Source of the DNA: an uncultured Prolixibacteraceae bacterium | GTDB lineage: Bacteria > Bacteroidota > Bacteroidia > Bacteroidales > FEN-979 | Length of the DNA: 64,000 nucleotides | NCBI GenBank assembly: GCA_964473485.1 | Contig: CAYYPH010000019.1 | Span: forward strand, 2,668-66,667 | Reading direction: 5' to 3' | Shown here: positions 9,418 through 63,501 of the stretch, in pieces | Layout: every line of letters begins with the position of its first letter | Numbering within the stretch: the stretch's first letter is position 1 | Translations under genes and position numbers: made by a program | The notes under the pieces: model-generated | The model's database searches: none | What the model was told of the DNA's origin: nothing | The model's input: the letters and a program-made list of their open reading frames with translations, nothing else

Positions 9418-9504
9418 GTTCCCAGTTTCATCAAGAAATTTTCTGACAGAAGGGTGACCGCCTCTAAAATCGACCTATCTTTATATCGCTATTCCCTTCT
9501 TTTC

Positions 9505-11817
9505 ATGACCACTTTGAAGCAAGCCATCGCGAGGATCCCTTTTTGGGCTTACTTGGTTGTACTTGTATCAATGTTTGTGAACACCGTGTACTTTGTATTT
9601 ACATACGCGGCAATCGTTGTTTATTCAGAATCTCCCGTCACTCCGGTGTTTTCCTGGGCGGTGTACCTTACAACCATTCTGTTTGGTACCGGCAGTCTCT
9701 ATCTTCTATACAAAAAGCCTGGTGATCGCCCGGTCAGGATTTTCTTTTTCTACGTACAGTTTTTTGTAATTATGATCAATGCAGGAAACCTTTTTGTGCT
9801 GAATCCTTTGATCAATATTGTGAATATTGTCTTCCATACAACCTGTTTTATTGGTTCAGTTCTAATCAGTTTCCATCTCGTATTTCCGAAAACGGTAAAA
9901 TATTACAACACATTAAGGAGCGTTTCATGGATCATCTATGTATTTACCACAATAGTTGTTAGTTGTTATTCAGCAAGTTATATTTACTCTGTTTATAATG
10001 AATTAACGCCTGACTCCTTTTTTTTCGTTGCTGAACGAATCGCTTTATGGTGGCTCACATTAACTTATATAGGTGCCTTGGCAATTGCTGTTTACCAGTA
10101 TGCTACTTTGAAAGACACACTCTTAAAAAACCAGGTGTTCATTGTCTGTATAGGATCTCTTTTCGGATTAATCACACCAATGTGCCTGGCTTTGTTCTAT
10201 GATTTTATCCTTCCTTTAACTTTTAAAAATCCCAATCCAATTGTTATTTCCCAAGGTATTTGCAGTTTAATCACCATCTGCTGCATCCTCACCGCCATCT
10301 TCCGTTACCGCATCTGGGATATCGAGGTCGTCATCCGGAAAGCCTTGCTGTACCTGGGAGCCACCGCCATCATCATCTTGTCGTACCTCTTCCTGGTCTG
10401 GCTCATTGATCAGTTCACGGCCGGAGCCACCGATCTGATCCGCTTTGCCGCCCTGGGCATTTCCGTAATCCTCTTCCTCGTTCTCCGCGACCGCATCCAG
10501 CGGCTGATCGACCGGATCTTTCACCGCGAGACCTACGACTCTGCCACGGTAGTATCCGATTTTGAAGCAAAACTGGCGGGGATTTACAGGTTTGATGAGT
10601 TGAAACAGAAAATTGTCCAGAGTCTTGATGAGATCTTCCATTTTAAATCCTTTGTTTTTAACCTGAAGAAAAACAACCAGATCTATGAACCCGCTTATGC
10701 TTTAGGGATCGATGATACGGACATTCCAGCAGAATATGAGATCTCCGCCGAAATTGAAGACAGACTCAGGAAATCAAAGGTCTTTTCCCCTCAAGAGTTG
10801 AATGTGACGTCCCCTGTGCTTGAAACGATCAAAGGAGACCTCATTGTTCCGATGGTATCCGAAGGTCAACCGGAAGGGTTTTTTATCTGCGGACAGAAAA
10901 AGTCGGAGCGGATCTATTCCCGGCAGGACATCAACGTGCTCTCATTGCTTGCGAGAAGAGTGGTTGCCATGCTTCATACCGCCAGCCTTTACCAGAAAGA
11001 TCTTGACCGCCAACTGATGCTTGAACGTGAACGCGCCCGCATCGCCCAGGACATGCACGACGACATCGGCGCGGGACTGACAAAAATCGCCATGATCAGC
11101 GAAGCGCCTGTTCAAGTTCCCGGTCAGCAGTCACTTACTGCAAACTTACTCTCAGATCGCTTGAAGAAGATTGCAACATCTTCCCGCGACATGATCTCCC
11201 GCCTGAACGTGATCGTCTGGGCGCTGAATCCCCGGTATGACAATCTTGAAAGCCTGGTCAGCTATCTTCGGAGATATTTCGGGGAATACCTTGAAAACTT
11301 CGGAATTCAATTCAGCACCGGATTTCTGGAAGAGGTACCCGAACGTGCCATCACACCCGACACCCGGCGTAACATCTTCTATATCATTCAGGAGGCCATT
11401 CACAATGCGGTCAAGCACAGCGGCTGCACAGAGATCGGCCTTGACATTGCATTCTACTCCGGGTCGCCGCACAATTCCACGGGCTTTAAACTTCAATCCC
11501 CCCTTGAAACCAATGACTGCACTTCCCTGCCACGCCATAATACCAATGACCTCATGCCACCACTGCATCACACGACCGGTGACTCCCTCACACTACAACC
11601 TCCTCGCCCTGAAGGAGAGGGGAAGAAGGAAAAGAGGCGCTATACCTTAACCTTCATCATCATCGACAACGGTAAGGGATTTGACCAGGTCAAAACCGGT
11701 TCCGGCGGAAACGGTCTGCTGAACATGAAAAAGCGGGCGGAGGAACTGTCGGGGACTTGCGAAGTTCAAAGTTCACCGGGGAAAGGGACCAAAATTACAG
11801 TACGGGTAAACATTTAA
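9505..11817 (+). CDS. Sensor histidine kinase HK1: multi-pass membrane, GAF-like, HisKA_3, HATPase_c (no PDZ)
   Basis: The start is trimmed to MTTLKQAIARIPFWAYL by analogy with the paralog N-termini. H-box ERERARIAQDMHDDIGAGL, N-box EAIHNAVKHS, G-box DNGKGFD...GNGLLNMKKR. Has a long insertion between the N and G1 boxes. Confidence 0.85.
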   Translation: MTTLKQAIARIPFWAYLVVLVSMFVNTVYFVFTYAAIVVYSESPVTPVFSWAVYLTTILFGTGSLYLLYKKPGDRPVRIFFFYVQFFVIMINAGNLFVLNPLINIVNIVFHTTCFIGSVLISFHLVFPKTVKYYNTLRSVSWIIYVFTTIVVSCYSASYIYSVYNELTPDSFFFVAERIALWWLTLTYIGALAIAVYQYATLKDTLLKNQVFIVCIGSLFGLITPMCLALFYDFILPLTFKNPNPIVISQGICSLITICCILTAIFRYRIWDIEVVIRKALLYLGATAIIILSYLFLVWLIDQFTAGATDLIRFAALGISVILFLVLRDRIQRLIDRIFHRETYDSATVVSDFEAKLAGIYRFDELKQKIVQSLDEIFHFKSFVFNLKKNNQIYEPAYALGIDDTDIPAEYEISAEIEDRLRKSKVFSPQELNVTSPVLETIKGDLIVPMVSEGQPEGFFICGQKKSERIYSRQDINVLSLLARRVVAMLHTASLYQKDLDRQLMLERERARIAQDMHDDIGAGLTKIAMISEAPVQVPGQQSLTANLLSDRLKKIATSSRDMISRLNVIVWALNPRYDNLESLVSYLRRYFGEYLENFGIQFSTGFLEEVPERAITPDTRRNIFYIIQEAIHNAVKHSGCTEIGLDIAFYSGSPHNSTGFKLQSPLETNDCTSLPRHNTNDLMPPLHHTTGDSLTLQPPRPEGEGKKEKRRYTLTFIIIDNGKGFDQVKTGSGGNGLLNMKKRAEELSGTCEVQSSPGKGTKITVRVNI

Positions 11818-12706: not shown

Positions 12707-15079
12707 ATGGGCAACCTGAGGCATTCGCTCCGCCGGATTCCCTATTGGGCCTACCTGCTCGTGCTGGCAGTTATCGGCATAAACACCGCCTGGCTGATTT
12801 ACCGGGGCAGGATACCGCTAGGAGGAGCGACCCTGAAGATGGAACAGGGATATTACATCCACGATTTTGTAAATCCACGGGGTTCAGTATACGAAGCGGG
12901 AATACGCCCCGGAGACACACTTGTTTCGATGGATGCTGTTGCCATTGAAAAATGGCAATATAACCTGAAGACAGGAGATACCGTGATTGCAGGGATTCTA
13001 AGGAATGGCAAAGAAACTGCAATGCCCGTGATCATAGATTCCATCCACTCATATGCCCCCTGGTTTTTCTGGTCCGTCTACATCATTGTGATACTTGTCA
13101 CCATCGGGAGCCTCTGGTTGCTGTATAAAAAACCAAATGATAAATCGGCAGTGTTATTTTTTATCGTTATTCAAATGTTCATGATTGTGATAAATGCAAT
13201 CAGTTATCAGGATAATGCTCCTTTGGGAATGATTGCCGTGTTTGCGTTTCATTTTAGCAGTTGCTTTATAGGTACGGCGCTGATCCATTTTCACCTGCTT
13301 TTCCCAAAACCTGCAACGTTTTTCAACCAGGGTAAAAGATGGCTTATTTTATTCTATATACTGAGCTTCATACTACTGACCGCTTATTTTACGTCCTATT
13401 ACTTTCTTCACTATCCTGGGTTTATGACCGGAAAATACTATGGGCTATTTGACAGGATCGTTGTGTCGTGGATGACGCTGACTTTCTTATTGGCGTTAGT
13501 TGTTGCCGTATTTCAATTCCGGACAATAAAAGACACCCTTTCGCGTAACCAGTTACGTCTCGTAATAACAGGTTCAGCGTTCGGCTTTATAGGCCCCGCG
13601 GCTTTTTCACTGTTTTATAAAAGTGTCGGCGATATTTCAGCGAAGTATCCCCTGATGGTGCCTGTTTCCCAGGGAACTGCGACCATGATCCTGATCTGCT
13701 GCATCCTGGTCGCCATCTTCCGTTACCGGATCTGGGATATTGAAATCTTTATCCGCAGGGCAATGCTTTACCTGGGAGCGACAATGGTCATCATGTTGTC
13801 GTATTTGTTGCTTCTTTACCTTGTCGATCTGTTTACGCTCCGTGAATCAAGTCTCACCCGATTTGTGATGCTGGCGCTTTCGGTCATCATTTTCCTGGCG
13901 GTCAGGGATTGGCTCCAGCGTATGTTAGAAAGAGTGTTTTTCAGGGAAAAGTATGATCCGACCACCGTTGTTTCCCGATTTGAAGAGAAGCTTGCCGGCA
14001 TATACAGGGCCGATGAGCTTAAATCAGGCATCGTAATGAGAATGGATGAGATATTTCATTTTTCGCACATCGCATTTCTCTTGAAAAAAAATGAACTTGT
14101 TTATGAAACGGTATTTTCGGCAGGACTTGATCATCAGAGAGTGAAAGGCGAATTTATGGTCACCCGGGAGCTGGAGAACAGGCTTCAGAAGCAGAAAGTA
14201 TTTACTCCGGGCGAAATGGAACAAATGCCTGTTTTCATTGAAGAAACCCATGCTGAACTGGTGGTTCCGGTGCTGAAAGATGAACACCCTTTCGGGTTTT
14301 TTCTTTGCGGACCAAAGAAATCGGAGAAACCCTATTCCATGCAGGACATCCGGCTCCTTTCGCTGATCGCCAGGCGGGTCAACGCATTGTTCCATACGGC
14401 GGCACTCTATCAGAAAGACCTCGACCGTCAGCTCATGCTCGAACGCGAACGAGCAAGGATTTCGCAGGACATGCACGACGATATCGGGGCCAGCCTTACC
14501 CGGATCTCTATGATGAGCGATCTGGTCAATAACAGGACCGATGTCGGGGATGGTGCCAGGCAATGGTTGGCGAAGATCAGCAACGCATCACGGGGATTGA
14601 TGGAAGAGATGAACCAGATCATCTGGGCACTGAATCCAAGGAACGATAACCTCGAAGGACTCGTAACATACATTCGTCGTTTCGCATTCGAATACCTGGA
14701 ACCTACAACGGTGGACTGTGTTTTCGATCTCCCGGCAGAGATGCCGCACCTGGCCCTGAGCGTGGAGGTACGCAGGAATGTTTACCTTGTATCCCGCGAA
14801 GCCGTTCACAACGTTGTGAAGCATTCAGGAGCCACCAAGGTGGTGATTACGTTCACCCCCCAAACCCCTCTCTGTGAAGGAGAAAGATGGGGGGAGGAAA
14901 GGTCGTTTAAAATCTCCATTCACGACAACGGGAAAGGATTTGATCCCGGGAAGTTCGAATTTCAGGGGAATGGGCTGATCAATATGAAGAAGAGAATGCA
15001 TGAAATAGGTGGAGCATTGGTGATTCACTCCATCATTGGCAGGGGAACGGAAATCGAACTGGAAGTGCCTGTGAGATAA
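12707..15079 (+). CDS. Sensor histidine kinase HK2: TM1, PDZ, ~9 TM, GAF-like, HisKA_3, HATPase_c
   Basis: PDZ-like GIRPGDTLVSMDAVAIEKW...GDTVIAGILRNGKE lies between TM1 and TM2. H-box ERERARISQDMHDDIGASL, EAVHNVVKHS, DNGKGFD...GNGLINMKKR. Confidence 0.85.
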   Translation: MGNLRHSLRRIPYWAYLLVLAVIGINTAWLIYRGRIPLGGATLKMEQGYYIHDFVNPRGSVYEAGIRPGDTLVSMDAVAIEKWQYNLKTGDTVIAGILRNGKETAMPVIIDSIHSYAPWFFWSVYIIVILVTIGSLWLLYKKPNDKSAVLFFIVIQMFMIVINAISYQDNAPLGMIAVFAFHFSSCFIGTALIHFHLLFPKPATFFNQGKRWLILFYILSFILLTAYFTSYYFLHYPGFMTGKYYGLFDRIVVSWMTLTFLLALVVAVFQFRTIKDTLSRNQLRLVITGSAFGFIGPAAFSLFYKSVGDISAKYPLMVPVSQGTATMILICCILVAIFRYRIWDIEIFIRRAMLYLGATMVIMLSYLLLLYLVDLFTLRESSLTRFVMLALSVIIFLAVRDWLQRMLERVFFREKYDPTTVVSRFEEKLAGIYRADELKSGIVMRMDEIFHFSHIAFLLKKNELVYETVFSAGLDHQRVKGEFMVTRELENRLQKQKVFTPGEMEQMPVFIEETHAELVVPVLKDEHPFGFFLCGPKKSEKPYSMQDIRLLSLIARRVNALFHTAALYQKDLDRQLMLERERARISQDMHDDIGASLTRISMMSDLVNNRTDVGDGARQWLAKISNASRGLMEEMNQIIWALNPRNDNLEGLVTYIRRFAFEYLEPTTVDCVFDLPAEMPHLALSVEVRRNVYLVSREAVHNVVKHSGATKVVITFTPQTPLCEGERWGEERSFKISIHDNGKGFDPGKFEFQGNGLINMKKRMHEIGGALVIHSIIGRGTEIELEVPVR

Positions 15080-18360: not shown

Positions 18361-20769
18361 ATGAAGAAAATACTGCCTGTTTTCCGCCGGATCACCTATT
18401 GGGCCTACCTCCTTGTGGCGCTCGTACTGGCGGCGAACACCATTAACCTGATTTATCAGTATAAAGCCGCTCGCAGCGGGGAACACTTCAGCCTGAACAA
18501 CGGTTTTTATATCATCGATTTTATCGGGGAGGATACGCCGGTTGGCCGGACAGAGATAAAAACGGGGGATACCATTGTTTCCTGCAACGGCATTTCGATT
18601 CCGGAATGGACATCGTTTTATCACGGCCAGGTGGCAGGCGATACGCTCATCTTCGGGATCCTAAGGAATAACGTGGAGATTGGGATCCCGGTGATCGAGG
18701 ATTCTTACTTTTCGGAAGGGGCCGGGTATATATGGGCCAGCTACCTTGTTTCAATCCTGGTCAGCATCGGGAGCCTGTATCTGCTGGTCAGGCGTCCGAA
18801 GGATAAGGAGGTCAAATTGTTTTTCATTTATCTGCTTTTAGTGGCGCTCATAAGCGCCCAGCCGAATTTTATACCTTTTCCGCTTCTTCTCCCTGTACTG
18901 GCCAAATCGTTATTCATCATGTTGGGTTCCTTGTATGGCGCCGTCCTGATCCACTTTCACCTTATCTTTCCGCGCCGGGCCTTGATCCTTCAGAAGTTCA
19001 GGCATCTTCCGGTGGTTTTTTACGGAACCGGTGTCGTTGGTTCGTTATTTTTCCTGGTCCGGTACATTCAATGGGTCTATTTTCCGTCCGGTGAAACAGA
19101 TGAACTTTTTTTGACGGCAATACGTATCTCGCTTTATTCCAATACCGCGTTTTTTACGATAGCGCTGGTCATTGCCATCTATCAGTATATCACAATAAAA
19201 AATACCCTTGCAAGGAATCAGCTTATGCTTCTGCTTACCGGATCTTTTTTCGTATTCCTGCCACTTTTCACGTTGGCATTTTTTTACAATTGGGTTACAA
19301 GCATCCCATGGCCTTTTACGGTTGACGTGGCTTCTGCTGCGGGTAACCTGATATTGGTCCTGTGTATCCTGATCGCCGTTTTCCGGTACCGGATCTGGAA
19401 CGTTGAAGTGGTGGTCAGGAAGGCACTGCTTTACCTGACAGCCACCGCAATGATCATCCTGGTCTATTTTTCATTGGTCTGGATCGTTGACCGTCTCCTG
19501 GTCCGTGAGAACAACCTTTCCCGTTTCCTGATACTGGCTGTTTCCGTTACGGCATTCCTGCTTCTCAGGGACCGGATGCAGCGGATGATCGACCGGATAT
19601 TTCACCGTGAAACCTATGATTCGGCCACCGTGGTTTCCGAGTTTGAATCTAAACTGGCGGGCATCTACCGGTTGGATGAACTTACCGCCAGGATCGTTCA
19701 ATCGCTTGACGAGATATTCCATTTCAGGAGCTTTGCCTTCAACCTGAGAAAAGAGGGGCTGGTCTACCGTACGGTCACTTTTCAGGGGACCGGGTATGTC
19801 CCCGACGGTCATGAATTCACCGTCACACGGGAGTTTGATGAAAAGCTGCGAAGATCCGGCGTATTTGCTCCTGCTGAACTCATTAACCCGCAAGAACTCC
19901 CAGGAATACGGGACGAGGAGCTGATCGTGCCGGTCACGAAGGATCATGACCCGCAGGGTTTCTTCCTGTGCGGCCCTAAAAAGTCGGAGCGAATCTATTC
20001 GCAGCAGGATATCCGGGTTCTGTCACTTCTTGCCCAAAGGGTGATCGCATTGCTTCACACCGCTTCGCTCTACCAGAAAGACCTGGACCGCCAGGTCATG
20101 CTGGAACGTGAACGCCATCGCATCTCGCAGGACATGCACGATGATGTCGGTGCAAGCCTTACCAGGATCTCGATTTTAAGCGAGCTGGCCAGGAACAGGC
20201 CGGATTTATCAGGTGAAACCCGTCAATGGCTGGGCCAGATCAGCGAGACCAGCAGGGAGGTGATGGAGGAGATGAGCCAGATCATCTGGGCGCTGAATCC
20301 GAAAAATGATACGTTGAACGGGCTGATCGCTTACATCCGGAGATTTGCCAACGAGTATTTCGAACCAACTTCCATCGCCTGCCGGTTCAACCTGCCTGAA
20401 TCCTTACCCGATTTTACGCTGACCGTCGAGGTCCGCCGAAACATCTACCTGGTCGTAAGGGAAGCCCTGCATAATGCGGTGAAGCATTCCGGGGCCGCTG
20501 AGGTGATGATTGAACTCACCCCCCAATACCTCGGAGCTTCATTGATCTCACCCCCCAACCCCATCTCCTTCAAGGAGAGGGGGAGTAAGGGAGAGAGGTC
20601 CTTCACCCTATCCATCCGCGACAACGGCAAAGGGTTCGATCCCTCCGCCCCGGAATTCCCCGGCAACGGGCTGGTCAACATGAAGAAGAGGATGGAGGAG
20701 ATCGACGGGAGGCTTGAGTTGAAGAGTGTACCAGGTGAAGGAACAATGGTAAAACTTGTGATTCCGTGA
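18361..20769 (+). CDS. Sensor histidine kinase HK3 (PDZ, multi-TM, GAF-like, HisKA_3, HATPase_c), no adjacent regulator
   Basis: PDZ-like IKTGDTIVSCNGISIPEW...GDTLIFGILRNNVE. H-box ERERHRISQDMHDDVGASL, EALHNAVKHS, DNGKGFD...GNGLVNMKKR. The next gene is a FISUMP protein, not a regulator. Confidence 0.85.
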   Translation: MKKILPVFRRITYWAYLLVALVLAANTINLIYQYKAARSGEHFSLNNGFYIIDFIGEDTPVGRTEIKTGDTIVSCNGISIPEWTSFYHGQVAGDTLIFGILRNNVEIGIPVIEDSYFSEGAGYIWASYLVSILVSIGSLYLLVRRPKDKEVKLFFIYLLLVALISAQPNFIPFPLLLPVLAKSLFIMLGSLYGAVLIHFHLIFPRRALILQKFRHLPVVFYGTGVVGSLFFLVRYIQWVYFPSGETDELFLTAIRISLYSNTAFFTIALVIAIYQYITIKNTLARNQLMLLLTGSFFVFLPLFTLAFFYNWVTSIPWPFTVDVASAAGNLILVLCILIAVFRYRIWNVEVVVRKALLYLTATAMIILVYFSLVWIVDRLLVRENNLSRFLILAVSVTAFLLLRDRMQRMIDRIFHRETYDSATVVSEFESKLAGIYRLDELTARIVQSLDEIFHFRSFAFNLRKEGLVYRTVTFQGTGYVPDGHEFTVTREFDEKLRRSGVFAPAELINPQELPGIRDEELIVPVTKDHDPQGFFLCGPKKSERIYSQQDIRVLSLLAQRVIALLHTASLYQKDLDRQVMLERERHRISQDMHDDVGASLTRISILSELARNRPDLSGETRQWLGQISETSREVMEEMSQIIWALNPKNDTLNGLIAYIRRFANEYFEPTSIACRFNLPESLPDFTLTVEVRRNIYLVVREALHNAVKHSGAAEVMIELTPQYLGASLISPPNPISFKERGSKGERSFTLSIRDNGKGFDPSAPEFPGNGLVNMKKRMEEIDGRLELKSVPGEGTMVKLVIP
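20547..20598 (+). repeat. In-frame G/C-rich palindromic element inside the HK3 ATPase domain
   Basis: CTCACCCCCCAACCCCATCTCCTTCAAGGAGAGGGGGAGTAAGGGAGAGAGG encodes ISPPNPISFKERGSKGER. Confidence 0.7.
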
Positions 20770-25876: not shown

Positions 25877-28276
25877 ATGTCGGTAATGTTCAGTTCTCTC
25901 CGCCTGATACCTTTCCGGGCATATCTGCTGGTATTCCTTGTCATTCTGGTCAATTCCATTTACTTCTGTTACAAAGGCAAATATCCGGACGACGGAATGA
26001 TCCTTCGATCAGAAAATGGCCGGTGGATCGCTGATCAATTCAGGCATGGCAGTCCTGCGTATAACGCGGGTGTCAGATCCGGTGACATCATACGTTCCAT
26101 TGGTGGAGGGTCGGTTGAAGCCTGGCTCAACAATAATTCAGGGCTGAAGGCCGGCGAAACAGTCATTTACCGGATTGAAAGAAACGGCCGTCCTCTCCAG
26201 ATAAGGGTTACAATGACTTCCTATTTTTCAGAGGCGGCCGGTTTTTTCTGGCTGATCCTTATTCTACCCACCATGTTCAGCATTGCATCGCTTTACCTGC
26301 TGTGGAAAAAACCGAAAGAAAAGGCCGCCTGGCTGTTTTTCATCTTTCTACAGTTGTTCGCGGTAAACACAAACGCATTATCCCTGCATTTTCCGGAATT
26401 TTTATCCATCCTGGCTTGCAATGTCTTTTTATTGTCCGGGACATTGCTTGGCCCTGTCCTGATCCATTTCCACCTGGTTTTCCCCAAACCTGCCAGCCTC
26501 CTCAGGCGCTTTACATGGCTCCCGCTCGTTTTCTACCTCGCGGGTATCCTGATTTTCATTCCCTATTCCATCATTCAATACCATTGGGCAATTTCTGATC
26601 TGCGCATCGGCACCATGTACGGTGATATGGACCGGATTGGTCTTACCTGGATGGCGCTGGCCTATACGATTGCTTTGCTTACAGCCATCTATCAGTTATT
26701 GACCAGCAGGGATACCTTGTCGCGGAATCAGCAACGAATGGTCATTATCGGTTCATTTTTTGGGTTTTTCACCCCGGTAGGATATGCCTTGTTCTATCAT
26801 TCGGTCAACCAACTGAACAATTATATCCTTTTCATCATGGTTCCCCATGGAACCGGGAGTCTGATCATGATCTGCTGCATCCTGGTGGCCATCTTTCGTT
26901 TCCACATCTGGGATATGGAGTTGATCATCCGCAAGGCCCTGCTCTACCTTGTTGCAACGGCATTCATCATCCTTTCTTATCTGCTGCTGATCTGGTTAGT
27001 GGATCTGATCGTCCTGAAGGAGTCGGATCTCAGCCGTTTTCTTGTTCTGGGCATTTCGGTGATCCTTTTCCTCGTACTGCGCGACCGGCTGCAGCGGTTT
27101 ACCGACCTGCTTTTTCACCGTGAAAGCTACGATTCAGCCACCGTCGTTTCCGGATTTGAAACCAGTCTCGCAGGGATATACCGCTTTGATGAACTGAAAG
27201 AAAAGATCGCACAAAGCATCGACGCGATCTTTCATTTCAAATCCTTTGCCTTTAATCTGAAGAAGAAAGGGCTGATCTATGACCCGGTATTTGTCCTCGG
27301 CGCCGGCAGTTCCGTCGAGGGGCAGGAATATGGGATAGACCGGGAGTTTGAAGACAGACTTCGGAAATCGAAGGTCTTTTCCCCGAAAGAAATAACCAAC
27401 AAACCTCAAATATTTGAAAAAATCAACGGCGAACTGGTCATTCCCATGGTGTCCGGCGGGCAACCGAACGGTTTCTTCATATGCGGGCAGAAGAGGTCGG
27501 AAAGGATCTACTCGAGACAGGACATCCAGTTGCTGCATCTGCTTGCACAGCGGGTGATTGCACTGCTGCATACGGCCGGTCTTTTTCAAAAAGACCTGGA
27601 CCGTCAGCTCATGCTTGAAAGGGAAAGGGCGAGGATCTCGCACGACATGCACGATGACGTAGGAGCCAGTCTTACCCGTATCTCCATCCTAAGCGAACTC
27701 GCAAAAAACAAGGCAGAAACAGACAAGGAGACCAGGCAATGGCTTGAACAGATCTCCTCCACGTCGCGCAGCGTCACCGAGGAGATGAGCCAGATCATCT
27801 GGGCGCTGAACCCGAAGAATGACACACTGGAAGGCCTGATCGCCTACATCCGGCGTTTCGTCGGCGAATACCTCGAACCGACCTCCGTTTCCTGCCGGTT
27901 CAACCTGCCTGATTGCCTGCCGGACCTGCCGCTGACCGTTGAAGTTCGCCGGAATATTTACCTGGTCGTCAGGGAGGCATTGCACAATGTGGTCAAGCAT
28001 TCAGAGGCGAGTGAGGTTGTCATAGGCCTCACCTCCGTTGGAGATTCTTTGACCTCACCCCCCAGCCCCCTCTCCTTCAAGGAGAGGGGGAGTAAGGGGG
28101 AGAAGTCATTTACTATCTCCATCTCCGACAACGGCAAAGGGTTCGATCCCTCCGCCCTGGAATTCCCAGGCAACGGGCTGGTCAACATGAAAAAGAGGAT
28201 GGAAGAAACCGGCGGGAGGCTTGACTTGAAGAGTGTACCAGGTGAAGGAACAATGGTAAAACTTGAGATTCCGTGA
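25877..28276 (+). CDS. Sensor histidine kinase HK4 (PDZ, multi-TM, GAF-like, HisKA_3, HATPase_c)
   Basis: PDZ-like GVRSGDIIRSIGGGSVEAW...GETVIYRIERNGRP. H-box ERERARISHDMHDDVGASL, EALHNVVKHS, DNGKGFD...GNGLVNMKKR. Confidence 0.85.
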   Translation: MSVMFSSLRLIPFRAYLLVFLVILVNSIYFCYKGKYPDDGMILRSENGRWIADQFRHGSPAYNAGVRSGDIIRSIGGGSVEAWLNNNSGLKAGETVIYRIERNGRPLQIRVTMTSYFSEAAGFFWLILILPTMFSIASLYLLWKKPKEKAAWLFFIFLQLFAVNTNALSLHFPEFLSILACNVFLLSGTLLGPVLIHFHLVFPKPASLLRRFTWLPLVFYLAGILIFIPYSIIQYHWAISDLRIGTMYGDMDRIGLTWMALAYTIALLTAIYQLLTSRDTLSRNQQRMVIIGSFFGFFTPVGYALFYHSVNQLNNYILFIMVPHGTGSLIMICCILVAIFRFHIWDMELIIRKALLYLVATAFIILSYLLLIWLVDLIVLKESDLSRFLVLGISVILFLVLRDRLQRFTDLLFHRESYDSATVVSGFETSLAGIYRFDELKEKIAQSIDAIFHFKSFAFNLKKKGLIYDPVFVLGAGSSVEGQEYGIDREFEDRLRKSKVFSPKEITNKPQIFEKINGELVIPMVSGGQPNGFFICGQKRSERIYSRQDIQLLHLLAQRVIALLHTAGLFQKDLDRQLMLERERARISHDMHDDVGASLTRISILSELAKNKAETDKETRQWLEQISSTSRSVTEEMSQIIWALNPKNDTLEGLIAYIRRFVGEYLEPTSVSCRFNLPDCLPDLPLTVEVRRNIYLVVREALHNVVKHSEASEVVIGLTSVGDSLTSPPSPLSFKERGSKGEKSFTISISDNGKGFDPSALEFPGNGLVNMKKRMEETGGRLDLKSVPGEGTMVKLEIP
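28054..28100 (+). repeat. In-frame G/C-rich palindromic element inside the HK4 ATPase domain
   Basis: A perfect 9-bp stem CCCCTCTCC-ttcaa-GGAGAGGGG (28067..28089) followed by GAGTAAG; encodes SPPSPLSFKERGSKGE. Confidence 0.75.
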
Positions 28277-28370: not shown

Positions 28371-29024
28371 ATGAAATACACGGGAAATGAATATACAGAA
28401 CCTATCCGGATTGCCCTGGTAGAAGATGATAAAACCGTCAGGGAAGGATTGCAGATGCTCCTCAATGGCTCCCCCGGATTCACCTGCGTGGCTGCATACA
28501 ACAGCGGGGAAGATGCCCTTGCAGGGATTCCTGATATGCTGCCGGAAGTGACGCTTATGGACATCAACCTTCCCGGCATCAACGGTATCGAATGTATACT
28601 TAAGCTCAAGGAACAGCAATTACCCATTCTCTTCATCATGCTGACGGTTTTCGAAGACGCCGACGCCATCTTCCGGTCGCTTTCAGCAGGTGCATGCGGA
28701 TATTTACTCAAACATACCCCACCCGCAAAACTGCTGGAAGCCATCCAGGATGTCTACCGGGGCGGTTCTCCCATGTCGGGGGAGATCGCACGAAAGGTGG
28801 TTCAGTCATTTCAGCAGGTACCCGCAAAAAACCATGACCAGGCCAACCTGACGAAACGGGAAGAGGAGATCCTCAACCTCCTGTCGCAAGGATATTTTTA
28901 CAAAGAGATCGCCCATTCTCTTTCCATCAGCGTCGAAACCGTCCGCACCCACATTCGCAACATCTACGAAAAGCTACAGGTCAGGACCCGGACGGAGGCA
29001 ATTCTGAAGTACTTGGGAAAGTAG
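28371..29024 (+). CDS. NarL/FixJ (LuxR-type HTH) response regulator RR3
   Basis: IALVEDDKTVREGL...TLMDINLPGING; [46 protein letters not shown]. By eye about 70% identical to RR2. Confidence 0.9.
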   Translation: MKYTGNEYTEPIRIALVEDDKTVREGLQMLLNGSPGFTCVAAYNSGEDALAGIPDMLPEVTLMDINLPGINGIECILKLKEQQLPILFIMLTVFEDADAIFRSLSAGACGYLLKHTPPAKLLEAIQDVYRGGSPMSGEIARKVVQSFQQVPAKNHDQANLTKREEEILNLLSQGYFYKEIAHSLSISVETVRTHIRNIYEKLQVRTRTEAILKYLGK

Positions 29025-62374: not shown

Positions 62375-62412
62375 GCCCCCTCCCAACCTCCCCCAATCGG
62401 GGGAGGAGTAAG
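62375..62412. repeat. G/C-rich hairpin element L (probable terminator of 61168..62364)
   Basis: CCTCCCCC-aatc-GGGGGAGG (62387..62406) followed by AGTAAG. Confidence 0.7.
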
Positions 62413-62469: not shown

Positions 62470-62514
62470 CCCATCTCCCTTCCCCCGACTTGGGGGAAGG
62501 GCCGGGGATGGGGG
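62470..62514. repeat. G/C-rich hairpin element R, inverted copy of L (probable terminator of dusB)
   Basis: CCCTTCCCCC-gactt-GGGGGAAGGG (62477..62501), nested in CCCATC...GATGGG. Its reverse complement aligns with element L. Confidence 0.7.
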
Positions 62515-63501
62515 CTAATCAAGCTCTGAAAGTATGCTCTCCACCTCCTCCAGACTTCCGGCCGTCACCAGCCGCATCCGGTGTTTCCTGAAATCGGGAA
62601 CTCCCCTGAAATAGCCGCTGTACATCTTCCGGATCTCGAGCAGCGTGGCCCGTTCGCCTTTGTAGGGGATCGATGTGCCCAGGTGTTCGCGCAACACCGC
62701 GATGCGTTCGTGCAGACCGGGCGGATCAGCCGGGGGATTGCCGGCCAACGCATTTTTGATCTCACGGAATATCCATGGGTTGCCGGTGGCCGCGCGGCCG
62801 ACAAGGATGCCGTCGACGCCCCAGCGGTTCTTCATCTCCACGGCCTTCGCCCCCGAATCGATGTCGCCGTTGCCGAACACCGGGATCTTCATCCGGGGAT
62901 TGTCCTTCACCGCGCCGATCAGGGTCCAGTCGGCCACTCCGCCGTAAAGCTGGGCGCGGGTGCGTCCGTGAATGGCCAGGGCGCTTATACCAACATCCTG
63001 CAGATGTTCGGCAATGGTCACGATCTCTTTGTGCTCCTCATCCCACCCCAGGCGGGTTTTGGCAGTCACCGGCAGGCGGGTCGACCTGACCACCGCCTCC
63101 GCAATCCCGATCATCTTCGGGATGTCCTGCAAAAGGGCCGCCCCACCGCCCTTCATGACGATCTTGCGGACCGGGCATCCGAAGTTGAGGTCGATGTAAT
63201 CTGGATTGGCCTCCTGGGCCACTTCGGCCGCCTGCATCATGGTTTCGGCCGAACTCCCGAAGATCTGGATCCCCACCGGCCGTTCCTCCGGTTCGAACTG
63301 CAGCTTGATGCGGCTCTTCCAGGCGTCGCGGATCAGGCCGTCGGCCGAAATGAATTCAGTGACCACCACATCGGCGCCAAACCGCCTGCAGATGCGCCGG
63401 AAAGGCGAATCGGTGACATCCTCCATGGGCGCCAGGATCACGGGGAACTCCCCGGCTTCAACGTTTCCGATCCTTACCAAAATATCGTAATTTAGCCGCA
63501 A
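62515..63501 (-). CDS. dusB: tRNA-dihydrouridine synthase
   Basis: VILAPMEDVTD, DLNFGCP, HGRT. The track start is TTG only 15 nt from the divergent downstream ORF, so the true start may be internal. Confidence 0.9.
   Translation of the reverse strand: MRLNYDILVRIGNVEAGEFPVILAPMEDVTDSPFRRICRRFGADVVVTEFISADGLIRDAWKSRIKLQFEPEERPVGIQIFGSSAETMMQAAEVAQEANPDYIDLNFGCPVRKIVMKGGGAALLQDIPKMIGIAEAVVRSTRLPVTAKTRLGWDEEHKEIVTIAEHLQDVGISALAIHGRTRAQLYGGVADWTLIGAVKDNPRMKIPVFGNGDIDSGAKAVEMKNRWGVDGILVGRAATGNPWIFREIKNALAGNPPADPPGLHERIAVLREHLGTSIPYKGERATLLEIRKMYSGYFRGVPDFRKHRMRLVTAGSLEEVESILSELD

Follow-up and report, generated by a model that had tools for sequence, protein, structure and literature searches.

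A translated BoxC/TMECO-like palindromic repeat in an ATPase-domain loop of paralogous histidine kinases from an uncultured Prolixibacteraceae bacterium

Palindromic repeats of the BoxC/PIT/triplex-motif kind have been known since the 1990s, and we know of no established function, partner or means of spread for them. In their layout, a C-stem and a G-stem precede a further G-block, the mirror of the G-stem (Holder et al. 2015, PMC4666352; Kaplan et al. 2016, PMC5100583; Hoyne and Maher 2000 and 2002, as cited in those papers), and they have also been described as HPGQ, a G-quadruplex-hairpin-duplex switch (PMC4666352, PMC5100583). Copies of the motif in Escherichia coli are 'always located intergenically', with 'none within' open reading frames (ORFs) (PMC4666352, PMC5100583). 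The present analysis concerns a 64,000-nucleotide (nt) stretch (hereafter, the window) of the genome of an uncultured Prolixibacteraceae bacterium (G000; ca. 5 Mb, 93.7% complete), in which a repeat of this kind is translated within paralogous membrane histidine kinases (HKs). A preliminary description of the window had proposed that a dispersed palindrome, resembling repetitive extragenic palindromic (REP) sequences or transposable elements of the miniature inverted-repeat kind (MITEs), was captured in frame and is common to the paralogues. This proposal was borne out by the non-kinase copies, by a host loop that is not universal and by conservation of the DNA in two reading frames. The element class (BoxC/PIT/TMECO) is already known; new with respect to the published papers are the translated in-frame copies, their two frames and their recurrence in one kinase loop.

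Like BoxC/PIT/TMECO repeats, the element consists of a C-rich stem and its G-rich complement, separated by a 3-6-nt loop, and, after a short second loop, a mirrored G-rich block, and its copies are dispersed in both orientations, sometimes paired as inverted repeats, in variable surroundings. Unlike in the E. coli TMECO motif, the stem register here is C5-T-C-T-C2, not C3-T-C-N-C3, and loop 2 on the + strand measures 5 nt. The kinase copies further differ from BoxC/PIT/TMECO repeats in having termini on both sides of one hairpin, and from the published intergenic copies of E. coli in being translated, in two frames. REPs are extragenic, and the activity of REP-associated tyrosine transposases (RAYTs) on them is experimentally supported. 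The element shares with the REP/REPIN and RAYT systems a short hairpin with many solo copies, as well as inverted copies that bracket a single-copy nuclease or transposase gene, the suspected mover. In contrast to REP/RAYT, the bracketed gene encodes a Vsr-like PD-(D/E)xK protein of the DUF559 family and not a Y1 (IS200-like) transposase; we know of no reported activity of DUF559 on such repeats. The GTAG/CGTC tag was found in none of the copies and the bracketed gene was that of DUF559, although no search for RAYT was made in the genome. Rickettsia palindromic elements (RPEs) are likewise short palindromic repeats lying in frame in unrelated genes, where they encode fold-compatible peptides, with intergenic copies too. 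RPEs are ca. 100-150 bp long, AT-rich and restricted to one genus, each family encoding a conserved peptide (PMC10969869), whereas the present element is ca. 45-56 nt long, GC-rich and found in many phyla, and changes of reading frame leave it with no conserved peptide; a sequence relation between the two is not expected. The heptamer satellite arrays of the same genome also fill intergenic gaps, but they consist of tandem 7-8-nt direct repeats as opposed to a single folded unit.

The repeat in the kinase genes and its class

HK3 and HK4 carry near-identical 56-nt nested palindromes. The HK4 copy (28051..28105) reads GACCTCACCCCCC-AG-CCCCCTCTCC-TTCAA-GGAGAGGGGG-AGTAA-GGGGGAGAAG and the HK3 copy (20544..20598) GATCTCACCCCCC-AA-CCCCATCTCC-TTCAA-GGAGAGGGGG-AGTAA-GGGAGAGAGG; the perfect hairpin initially recognised in HK4 and its near-identical counterpart in HK3 were thus confirmed. 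Their inner stems form 10/10 (HK4) and 9/10 (HK3) Watson-Crick pairs around the loop TTCAA, in agreement with the published rule of an 8-10-nt C-rich stem and a 3-6-nt loop. On the + strand, the mirror block gave 9/10 allowed triads in both HK3 and HK4 (rule: G.G:C, A.A:T, T.A:T; at most one mismatch). On the - strand, the head provides a perfect third block (GGGGGGTGAG), and a strict triplex-motif finder matched HK3 and HK4, so the triplex layout holds on both strands by the sequence rules. The plain hairpin described previously is therefore only part of the element: a third, mirror-repeat block is additionally present, and this assigns the element to the BoxC/triplex-motif type. Likewise, the AGTAAG tail pointed out in the preliminary description exists, but it is made up of loop 2 and the beginning of the third strand. 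The literal TMECO consensus, CCCTCNCCC-N3-6-GGGNGAGGG-N3-GGGNGAGGG, was not matched by the kinase copies, whose register is CCCCCTCTCC / GGAGAGGGGG with a loop 2 of 5 nt (+) or 2-3 nt (-). On these sequence rules, the kinase palindrome was identified as a copy of a dispersed repeat of the BoxC/PIT/TMECO intrastrand-triplex kind, and the kinase elements constitute a variant subfamily of the TMECO motif.

The structure of the element goes beyond chance or composition. RNA folding of the HK4 element gave z -3.8 on the + strand (Table 1) and -40.7 kcal/mol with z -4.4 on the - strand, and none of 200 shuffles was equally stable. When the same peptide was recoded synonymously (2000 trials each, with codon usage taken from the genes in the window), a fold as stable as that observed was obtained in 0/2000 trials for HK4 and 2/2000 for HK3. 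The element is also stop-poor, with three of its six frames open. The suggestion that it is terminator-like was rejected: it has no T-run, the sequence directly after the hairpin being AGTAAGGGGGAG in HK3 and HK4 and AGTAAGCGCTC at 62.4 kb, and PIT elements in E. coli showed neither promoter nor terminator activity, as far as the work of Hoyne and Maher (2002) is summarised in PMC4666352.

The degenerate versions reported for HK2 and HK1 were recovered to different degrees. A profile of DUF559 cassette ends (see below) detected the HK2 copy, whereas HK1 gave only a weak nhmmer match (Table 1). The HK1 remnant forms the end of a loop expanded by 60 residues, and an intact triplex motif occupies the same loop in L004_5538, a member of the HK1 group. 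From its sequence, the expanded HK1 loop looks like the product of repeated partial duplication followed by decay. Within the ca. 50 further loop residues upstream of the remnant (11449..11600), head-like strings (NDLMPPL, GDSLTLQPP) were observed, which resemble those preceding the hairpin in HK4, L002, L003 and L006. Head strings were present two or three times in HK3, HK4 and L001; in HK3, an additional copy, CTCACCCCCCAA, lies at 20515..20526.

Table 1. Positions of the kinases, of the repeat copies and their parts, and of the loci used for comparison (window coordinates unless a locus is named).
Feature	Position	Strand	Description	Source or measure
HK1	9454..11817		Membrane histidine kinase	ORF list
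HK2	12707..15079		Membrane histidine kinase	ORF list
HK3	18361..20769	+	Paralogous kinase	
HK4	25877..28276	+	PDZ, multiple transmembrane segments, GAF-like, HisKA_3, HATPase_c; host of the element	ORF list and Pfam
HK4, whole nested palindrome	28051..28106	+	Translated (L)TSPPSPLSFKERGSKGEK	Fold -34.9 kcal/mol, z -3.8; cassette-end profile match
HK4, left terminus (head) GACCTCACCCCCC	28051..28063	+	Complement of the third-strand block for the - strand triplex	
HK4, C-stem CCCCCTCTCC	28066..28075	+		10/10 Watson-Crick pairs with 28081..28090
HK4, G-stem 1 GGAGAGGGGG	28081..28090	+		
HK4, loop 2 AGTAA	28091..28095	+		
HK4, G-stem 2 GGGGGAGAAG	28096..28105	+	Mirror of G-stem 1; also the right terminus of the element	9/10 allowed triads
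HK3, element	20544..20601	+	Head 20544..20556, C-stem 20559..20568, G-stem 20574..20583, mirror block 20589..20598	
HK2, degenerate copy TTCACCCCCCAAACCCCTCTCTGTGAAGGAGAAAGATGGGGGGAGG	14852..14900	+	Same loop	Cassette-end profile E 1.7e-4 at 14852..14886
HK1, putative decayed remnant	11586..11628	+	CCTCGCCCTGAAGGAGAGGGG at 11602..11622	Weak nhmmer match, E 0.3
IG1, intergenic triplex motif	62376..62406	-	CCTCCCCC-GATT-GGGGGAGG-TTG-GGAGGGGG	8/8 triads allowed; strict triplex finder
IG2, intergenic triplex motif	62477..62514	+	CCCTTCCCCC-GACTT-GGGGGAAGGG-CC-GGGGATGGGGG	Cassette-end profile E 4.4e-4; fold z -2.7
Bracketed DUF559 cassettes (examples)	L155:1440-1953; L158:1364-1879; L184:1449-1953		Loci set L155-L184, congeners G001-G033	
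Solo in-frame copies	L012:1-3021; L019:3-3023; L022:1-936; L039:1862-2716	-; +; +; -		

Across the 5-Mb genome, the strict finder returned six motifs, namely HK3, HK4, both 62.4-kb hairpins, C1:716724 and C9:13474, versus none in the reversed genome. Single-sequence nhmmer searches of the genome with the kinase element recovered only HK3, C32:8738 and weak matches, and the IG1 hairpin used in the same way gave no match. These genome-wide searches established that further copies exist, intergenic as well as in frame; the non-kinase copies in this genome are C32:8738, C1:716724 and those at 62.4 kb in the window. A high-copy REP was considered for this genome and rejected, with only ca. 10 C-rich pyrimidine/purine hairpins present genome-wide. 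The C32 copy (C32:8738-8791), which lies outside the window, is degenerate, reads SSPPGSLAFKERGSM followed by a stop in one frame, and is located between heptamer satellite arrays of the GGGAGAA and GTCACCC types. An Rfam E-value scan of five motif-bearing loci found no family for the element; the matches were C4 antisense RNAs elsewhere and chance microRNA models.

The similarity of the kinase elements to the 62.4-kb hairpins, as originally proposed, held for one of the two. IG2 belongs to the family by its cassette-end profile score, and it represents, as a solo copy, the cassette end found in L175 (G008). The IG1 hairpin (62375..62412) showed no significant nhmmer similarity to the kinase elements (E above 10), having in common with them the architecture and the GGGGGAGTAAG string and no alignable sequence. 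This string was also observed directly after the G-stem in different subfamilies, in two congeners (L163:1335-1365 and the left end of L183) and, in the window, at 62399..62412 and 28086..28096. The AGTAAG tail may be a real conserved feature of some element subfamilies.

The repeat was also found in related genomes. The hairpin (up to two mismatches) occurred in 13 of 24 congeners, with as many as 13 strand-hits per genome and none for the reversed-pattern control, and in one of 16 genomes from other families of the same order. The congener copies examined were nearly all intergenic and in both orientations. They match CCTCTCC..GGAGAGGG..GGGGTGAGG, the pattern of the E. coli type B TMECOs (Table 1 of PMC4666352), and carry a one-sided tail, (CC)GGGGGTGAGGTC, that is the complement of the HK4 head GACCTCACCCCCC. 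A cross-phylum scan (one genome per species; pattern CCTCTCC-N3-6-GGAGAGGG-N2-5-GGGGTGAGG) yielded more than 120 loci among the matches listed, including those from Pseudomonas, Xanthomonas, Enterobacter, Acinetobacter, Acidobacteriota, Planctomycetota, Chloroflexota, Verrucomicrobiota, Bacteroidota and others. In one congener (L014:1040-1290; G023:C226), three tandem copies with a period of ca. 75 nt were observed, each following CTGGTACAACGCCAGCCAAGCAC; the CTGGTACAA string of this locus also flanks the L028 copy.

Conservation of the DNA rather than the peptide

The close paralogues of these kinases in the genome are HK1-HK4 only, and all four contain an insert. HK3 and HK4 are both HisKA_3/HATPase_c kinases, and their element falls, in frame, within the stretch of the ATPase domain that separates the N-box (HNVVKHS) from the G1 box (DNGKGF); despite the insert, all of the H, N, G1 and G2 motifs have stayed intact, and the HK4 domains were recognised by Pfam (HisKA_3 1.4e-12, HATPase_c 4.8e-9). 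Among the 120 best homologues of the catalytic half, ca. 100 have a fixed 17-residue segment at the insert site, e.g., VFVSMKMNEHGFRITIK, a beta-hairpin. Extra residues were present there in ca. 17, of which ca. 14 are rich in Pro, Gly and Glu like the inserts in the window, and the carriers were the nearest relatives only. HMMER alignments to the solved ATP-binding domains of DesK and DevS were interrupted precisely where the insert lies. The insert does not characterise the kinase family, and the loop, being missing in ca. 100 of the 120 homologues, is not universally conserved. In an AlphaFold model (mean predicted local distance difference test score, pLDDT, 83.5), the insert was coil with a pLDDT of 52-62 between strands 154-162 and 185-192 of the modelled fragment. 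It is translated as a P/S/G/E/K-rich surface loop, predicted to be disordered, at the turn of the beta-hairpin that leads from the N-box helix to the G1 box.

The DNA of the insert was compared on the contigs of seven relatives (homologue contigs P0009 and P0012 were not included). A strong hairpin of this type was found in every insert-bearing kinase on these contigs except L002_12375. The 25-nt core, CCCCCTCTCC-TTCAA-GGAGAGGGGG, had at most one change in HK3, HK4, L001, L003 and L006; the L002 core differs in the loop only, the L005 core has one G-stem mismatch, and in L004 and L007 the stems are the same but the loops shorter. In HK3, HK4 and L001, translation of this core gives SPLSFKERG, and in L002 and L003 it gives PPLLQ/EGEG; the second frame is also used in L005 and L006 on one-mismatch versions of the core. 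The frame is restored by length differences of one or ten nt in the G and C runs. Since the lineages using the two frames form one clade of the catalytic-domain tree, the frame must have changed while the nucleotides stayed. The core is identical in HK4 and L003 (25/25) and differs at one position between HK4 and HK3, L001, L002 or L006 (24/25). Third-codon identity in the flanks averages 43% (47% for HK4 versus L003; 56% for HK4 versus L005), and the full-length proteins of the core-bearing kinases are 54-67% identical. Because the same DNA is read in two frames, the conservation lies in the nucleotides and not in the peptide.

The relationships among the inserts are less simple. Kinases orthologous to those in the window and lacking the element do exist, as shown by the insert-free L006_319 of the HK1 group, which is syntenic with and 56% identical to HK1 and has the plain 17-residue hairpin; it is too diverged to define the insertion junctions. 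The insert of the HK1 lineage might have arisen independently of the others or have been copied from a paralogue. HK3 and L006_8134 share the same stem mismatch (CCCCATCTCC) and belong to different kinase groups; element relationships do not simply follow gene relationships. This distribution would fit insertions that struck one loop repeatedly as well as short-tract conversion among the tandem paralogues. A LuxR-type response regulator gene lies closely 3' of HK1, HK2 and HK4 (28371..29024 for that of HK4), and a secreted-protein gene 3' of HK3.

DUF559 cassettes and in-frame copies in other proteins

A DUF559 gene was present in 19 of the 24 congeners. Inverted hairpins of this kind were found within 250 nt on both sides of 20 of the 30 congener DUF559 loci, and five more loci had a hairpin on one side. 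The cassette is a unit of 517-518 bp that is 80-94% identical between five congeners; in several pairs (e.g., G020 vs. G017 or G014), the similarity stops at ACCTCAACCCCC ... GGGGGTTGAGGT, leaving the flanks unmatched. The association extended to other phyla: in an 836-kb cross-phylum sample of loci chosen for the motif, all six DUF559 genes were located at most 175 nt from a motif, and four were bracketed by inverted copies. A terminal inverted repeat profile, built only from the DUF559 cassette ends with no kinase sequence, matched HK4 (E 1e-6 on the - strand; 3.3e-4 on the + strand), HK3 (1e-4), HK2 (1.7e-4) and the hairpin at 62475..62517 (4.4e-4) and gave no other matches in the window. 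At the left end of the L184 and L161 cassettes, the 12-nt terminus, ACCTCACCCCCC, is identical to the last 12 nt of the HK4 head, and the 10-nt stem, CCCCCTCTCC, is likewise identical to that of HK4. In the kinase copy, a single hairpin is enclosed by the two outer termini, ACCTCACCCCCC ... GGGGGAGAAGT. Because the congener cassette ends have the same termini and hairpins, the kinase insert was read as a nuclease-less, MITE-like derivative; it looks like two cassette termini collapsed around one hairpin.

Just outside three cassettes (L155:1405-1990, L184:1430-1975, L158:1340-1900), the sequences were inverted repeats, different in each, and the L155 cassette sat in the loop of another, split triplex-motif hairpin. 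The sequences suggest that cassettes insert at palindrome apices rather than with direct target duplication. In E. coli K-12, the DUF559 gene ycjD (L185:1700-1925, fabI-ycjD spacer) has TMECO #9 ca. 170 nt downstream, and between TMECO #9 and the ycjD stop codon lie a degenerate hairpin and a second, incomplete duplicate of the 3' end of ycjD. On the 5' side of ycjD, no motif was found, and an unrelated AT-rich palindrome is present. The arrangement at ycjD is consistent with the cassette pattern, if untidy. DUF559 is not mentioned in PMC4666352, PMC5100583 or a 2024 MITE review, and the link was not seen in the titles and abstracts of the searched papers that mention DUF559.

In-frame capture is general for this repeat family. 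Solo copies were found in frame (Pfam-assigned) in a Fer4_20/Pyr_redox_2 oxidoreductase of two species, a UbiD-family protein (UbiD_C) and a CN_hydrolase protein (Table 1). The oxidoreductase copies sit in the linker just before the GAGPAG motif, and the L012 oxidoreductase has three tandem partial copies. Whole DUF559 domains, confirmed by Pfam, also occur in frame in LeuRS (L057, L182, L172, L145), MetRS (L045) and a Type ISP restriction-modification enzyme (L131); in L045, L131 and L145, motif-encoded Pro/Gly-rich linkers flank the domain on both sides. Local instability is evident as well: the kinase inserts add from 7 to 60 residues, head strings are repeated in HK3, HK4 and L001, and partial copies stand in tandem in L012.

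Weighing the explanations and their significance

Taken together, the kinase palindrome, a BoxC/TMECO repeat, is probably a nuclease-less, MITE-like copy that is tolerated in a disordered kinase loop. Such a DNA repeat would be selfish or neutral and would have been inserted, or transferred by conversion from one paralogue to another, instead of growing in place; we infer the insertion itself, because neither a target-site duplication nor a clean empty/filled pair was found. The DUF559 nuclease is a candidate mover of the element. Tolerance could be explained by the exposed, disordered turn, the stop-poor sequence and the intact catalytic motifs, and the element would be neutral for the kinase. 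The variation in length, the tandem partial duplications and the changes of frame might then stem from slippage at structured, homopolymer-rich DNA.

Several points weigh against this explanation. No DUF559 gene was found in the 93.7% complete genome, which thus has no current mobiliser, and yet the HK4 hairpin is perfect; motif copies in this genome are also few. No direct repeat flanks the kinase copies, and no target-site duplication or clean empty/filled pair was seen. In the catalytic-domain trees (ca. 215 columns, weakly resolved in places; an IQ-TREE tree without HK3, HK4 and others owing to a length filter, and a FastTree tree of all rows), insert-bearing kinases fell into at least five clades interleaved with insert-free ones, a count that is indicative only. 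Such interleaving would call for one loop having been hit repeatedly or for conversion among paralogues. Instead of moving the repeat, the DUF559 nuclease may travel with it as a passenger, and triplex formation has gone undetected in vivo in E. coli (PMC4666352). Above all, a near-identical core in kinases that are only 54-67% identical is hard to square with a purely neutral passenger: neutral decay would not yield a near-perfect core in a genome without a DUF559 gene. Something maintains the core; candidate causes are selection for the structure of the DNA or RNA, template switching by which the palindrome corrects itself, and gene conversion from other copies.

The main rivals are an mRNA function and a mutator function. 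The hairpin might be kept for work in the kinase mRNA, such as ribosome pausing between the N-box helix and the G1 box, transcript protection or cleavage, or attenuation of the downstream regulator; the core is conserved far above synonymous sites, in two frames, the RNA folds into a very stable structure (-35 kcal/mol, z -3.8), and the stability in HK4 was never reached by synonymous recoding. Nevertheless, we regard such a function as unlikely, given that the congener copies are intergenic in both orientations, that the element also resides in unrelated proteins, that the HK1 and HK2 genes are intact although their hairpins have decayed, and that the E. coli PIT elements, in the summary cited above, lacked promoter and terminator activity. 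Alternatively, structured DNA with C6 and G5 runs could make the element a local mutator or contingency locus, in which frequent indels switch the kinase off by frameshift before the G1 and G2 boxes or vary the loop. The variable insert length (7 to 60 residues), the different core frames of orthologues with compensating indels, the tandem partial duplications and the unusual variability of TMECO loci among E. coli strains (PMC4666352) all accord with this idea, but the reading frame is kept in the four kinases of the window and in every relative compared, and runs of 5-6 bases are short for classical phase variation; its maintenance as a mutator therefore appears improbable.

It is very improbable that the loop is a selected peptide, e.g., for docking or regulation, with palindromy as a by-product of a Pro/Ser-rich composition followed by a Gly/Glu/Lys-rich one. 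The inserts do occupy the same structural position in all four paralogues, and SPPxPxSFKERGSKGE is common to HK3, HK4 and L001. However, in the sister lineages P0006 and P0007 the same nucleotides are translated as PPLLQGEGE, sequences recoded for the peptide lose the nucleotide-level fold, the loop is predicted to be disordered and is missing in ca. 100 of 120 homologues, and the same DNA is also found between genes. A selected peptide was rejected on the two-frame result and the recoding and can be considered largely refuted.

Returning to the tolerated repeat copy, a broader version of that explanation can be offered tentatively, and we hold it to be possible but doubtful. BoxC/triplex repeats might be the ends and the nuclease-less offspring of a mobile DUF559 cassette that is distributed across many phyla and integrates at hairpin or palindrome apices, its stop-poor ends allowing in-frame persistence. 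In that case, an active process at the DNA level (structure-directed repair or conversion, or selection for a folded-DNA function) would preserve the nucleotides of the kinase copies, which would not simply decay, and reoccupation of the loop would reflect a real target preference.

The kinase copies indicate that the BoxC/triplex family is able to live inside genes and be translated, and the termini shared with the DUF559 cassettes provide a concrete, testable candidate for the spread of the repeat. For annotation, they account for a class of odd Pro/Gly-rich 'low-complexity loops' in bacterial proteins. The four paralogues, together with orthologues that have and lack the insert, constitute a natural system in which to ask whether folded DNA within a gene is neutral, mutagenic or functional.

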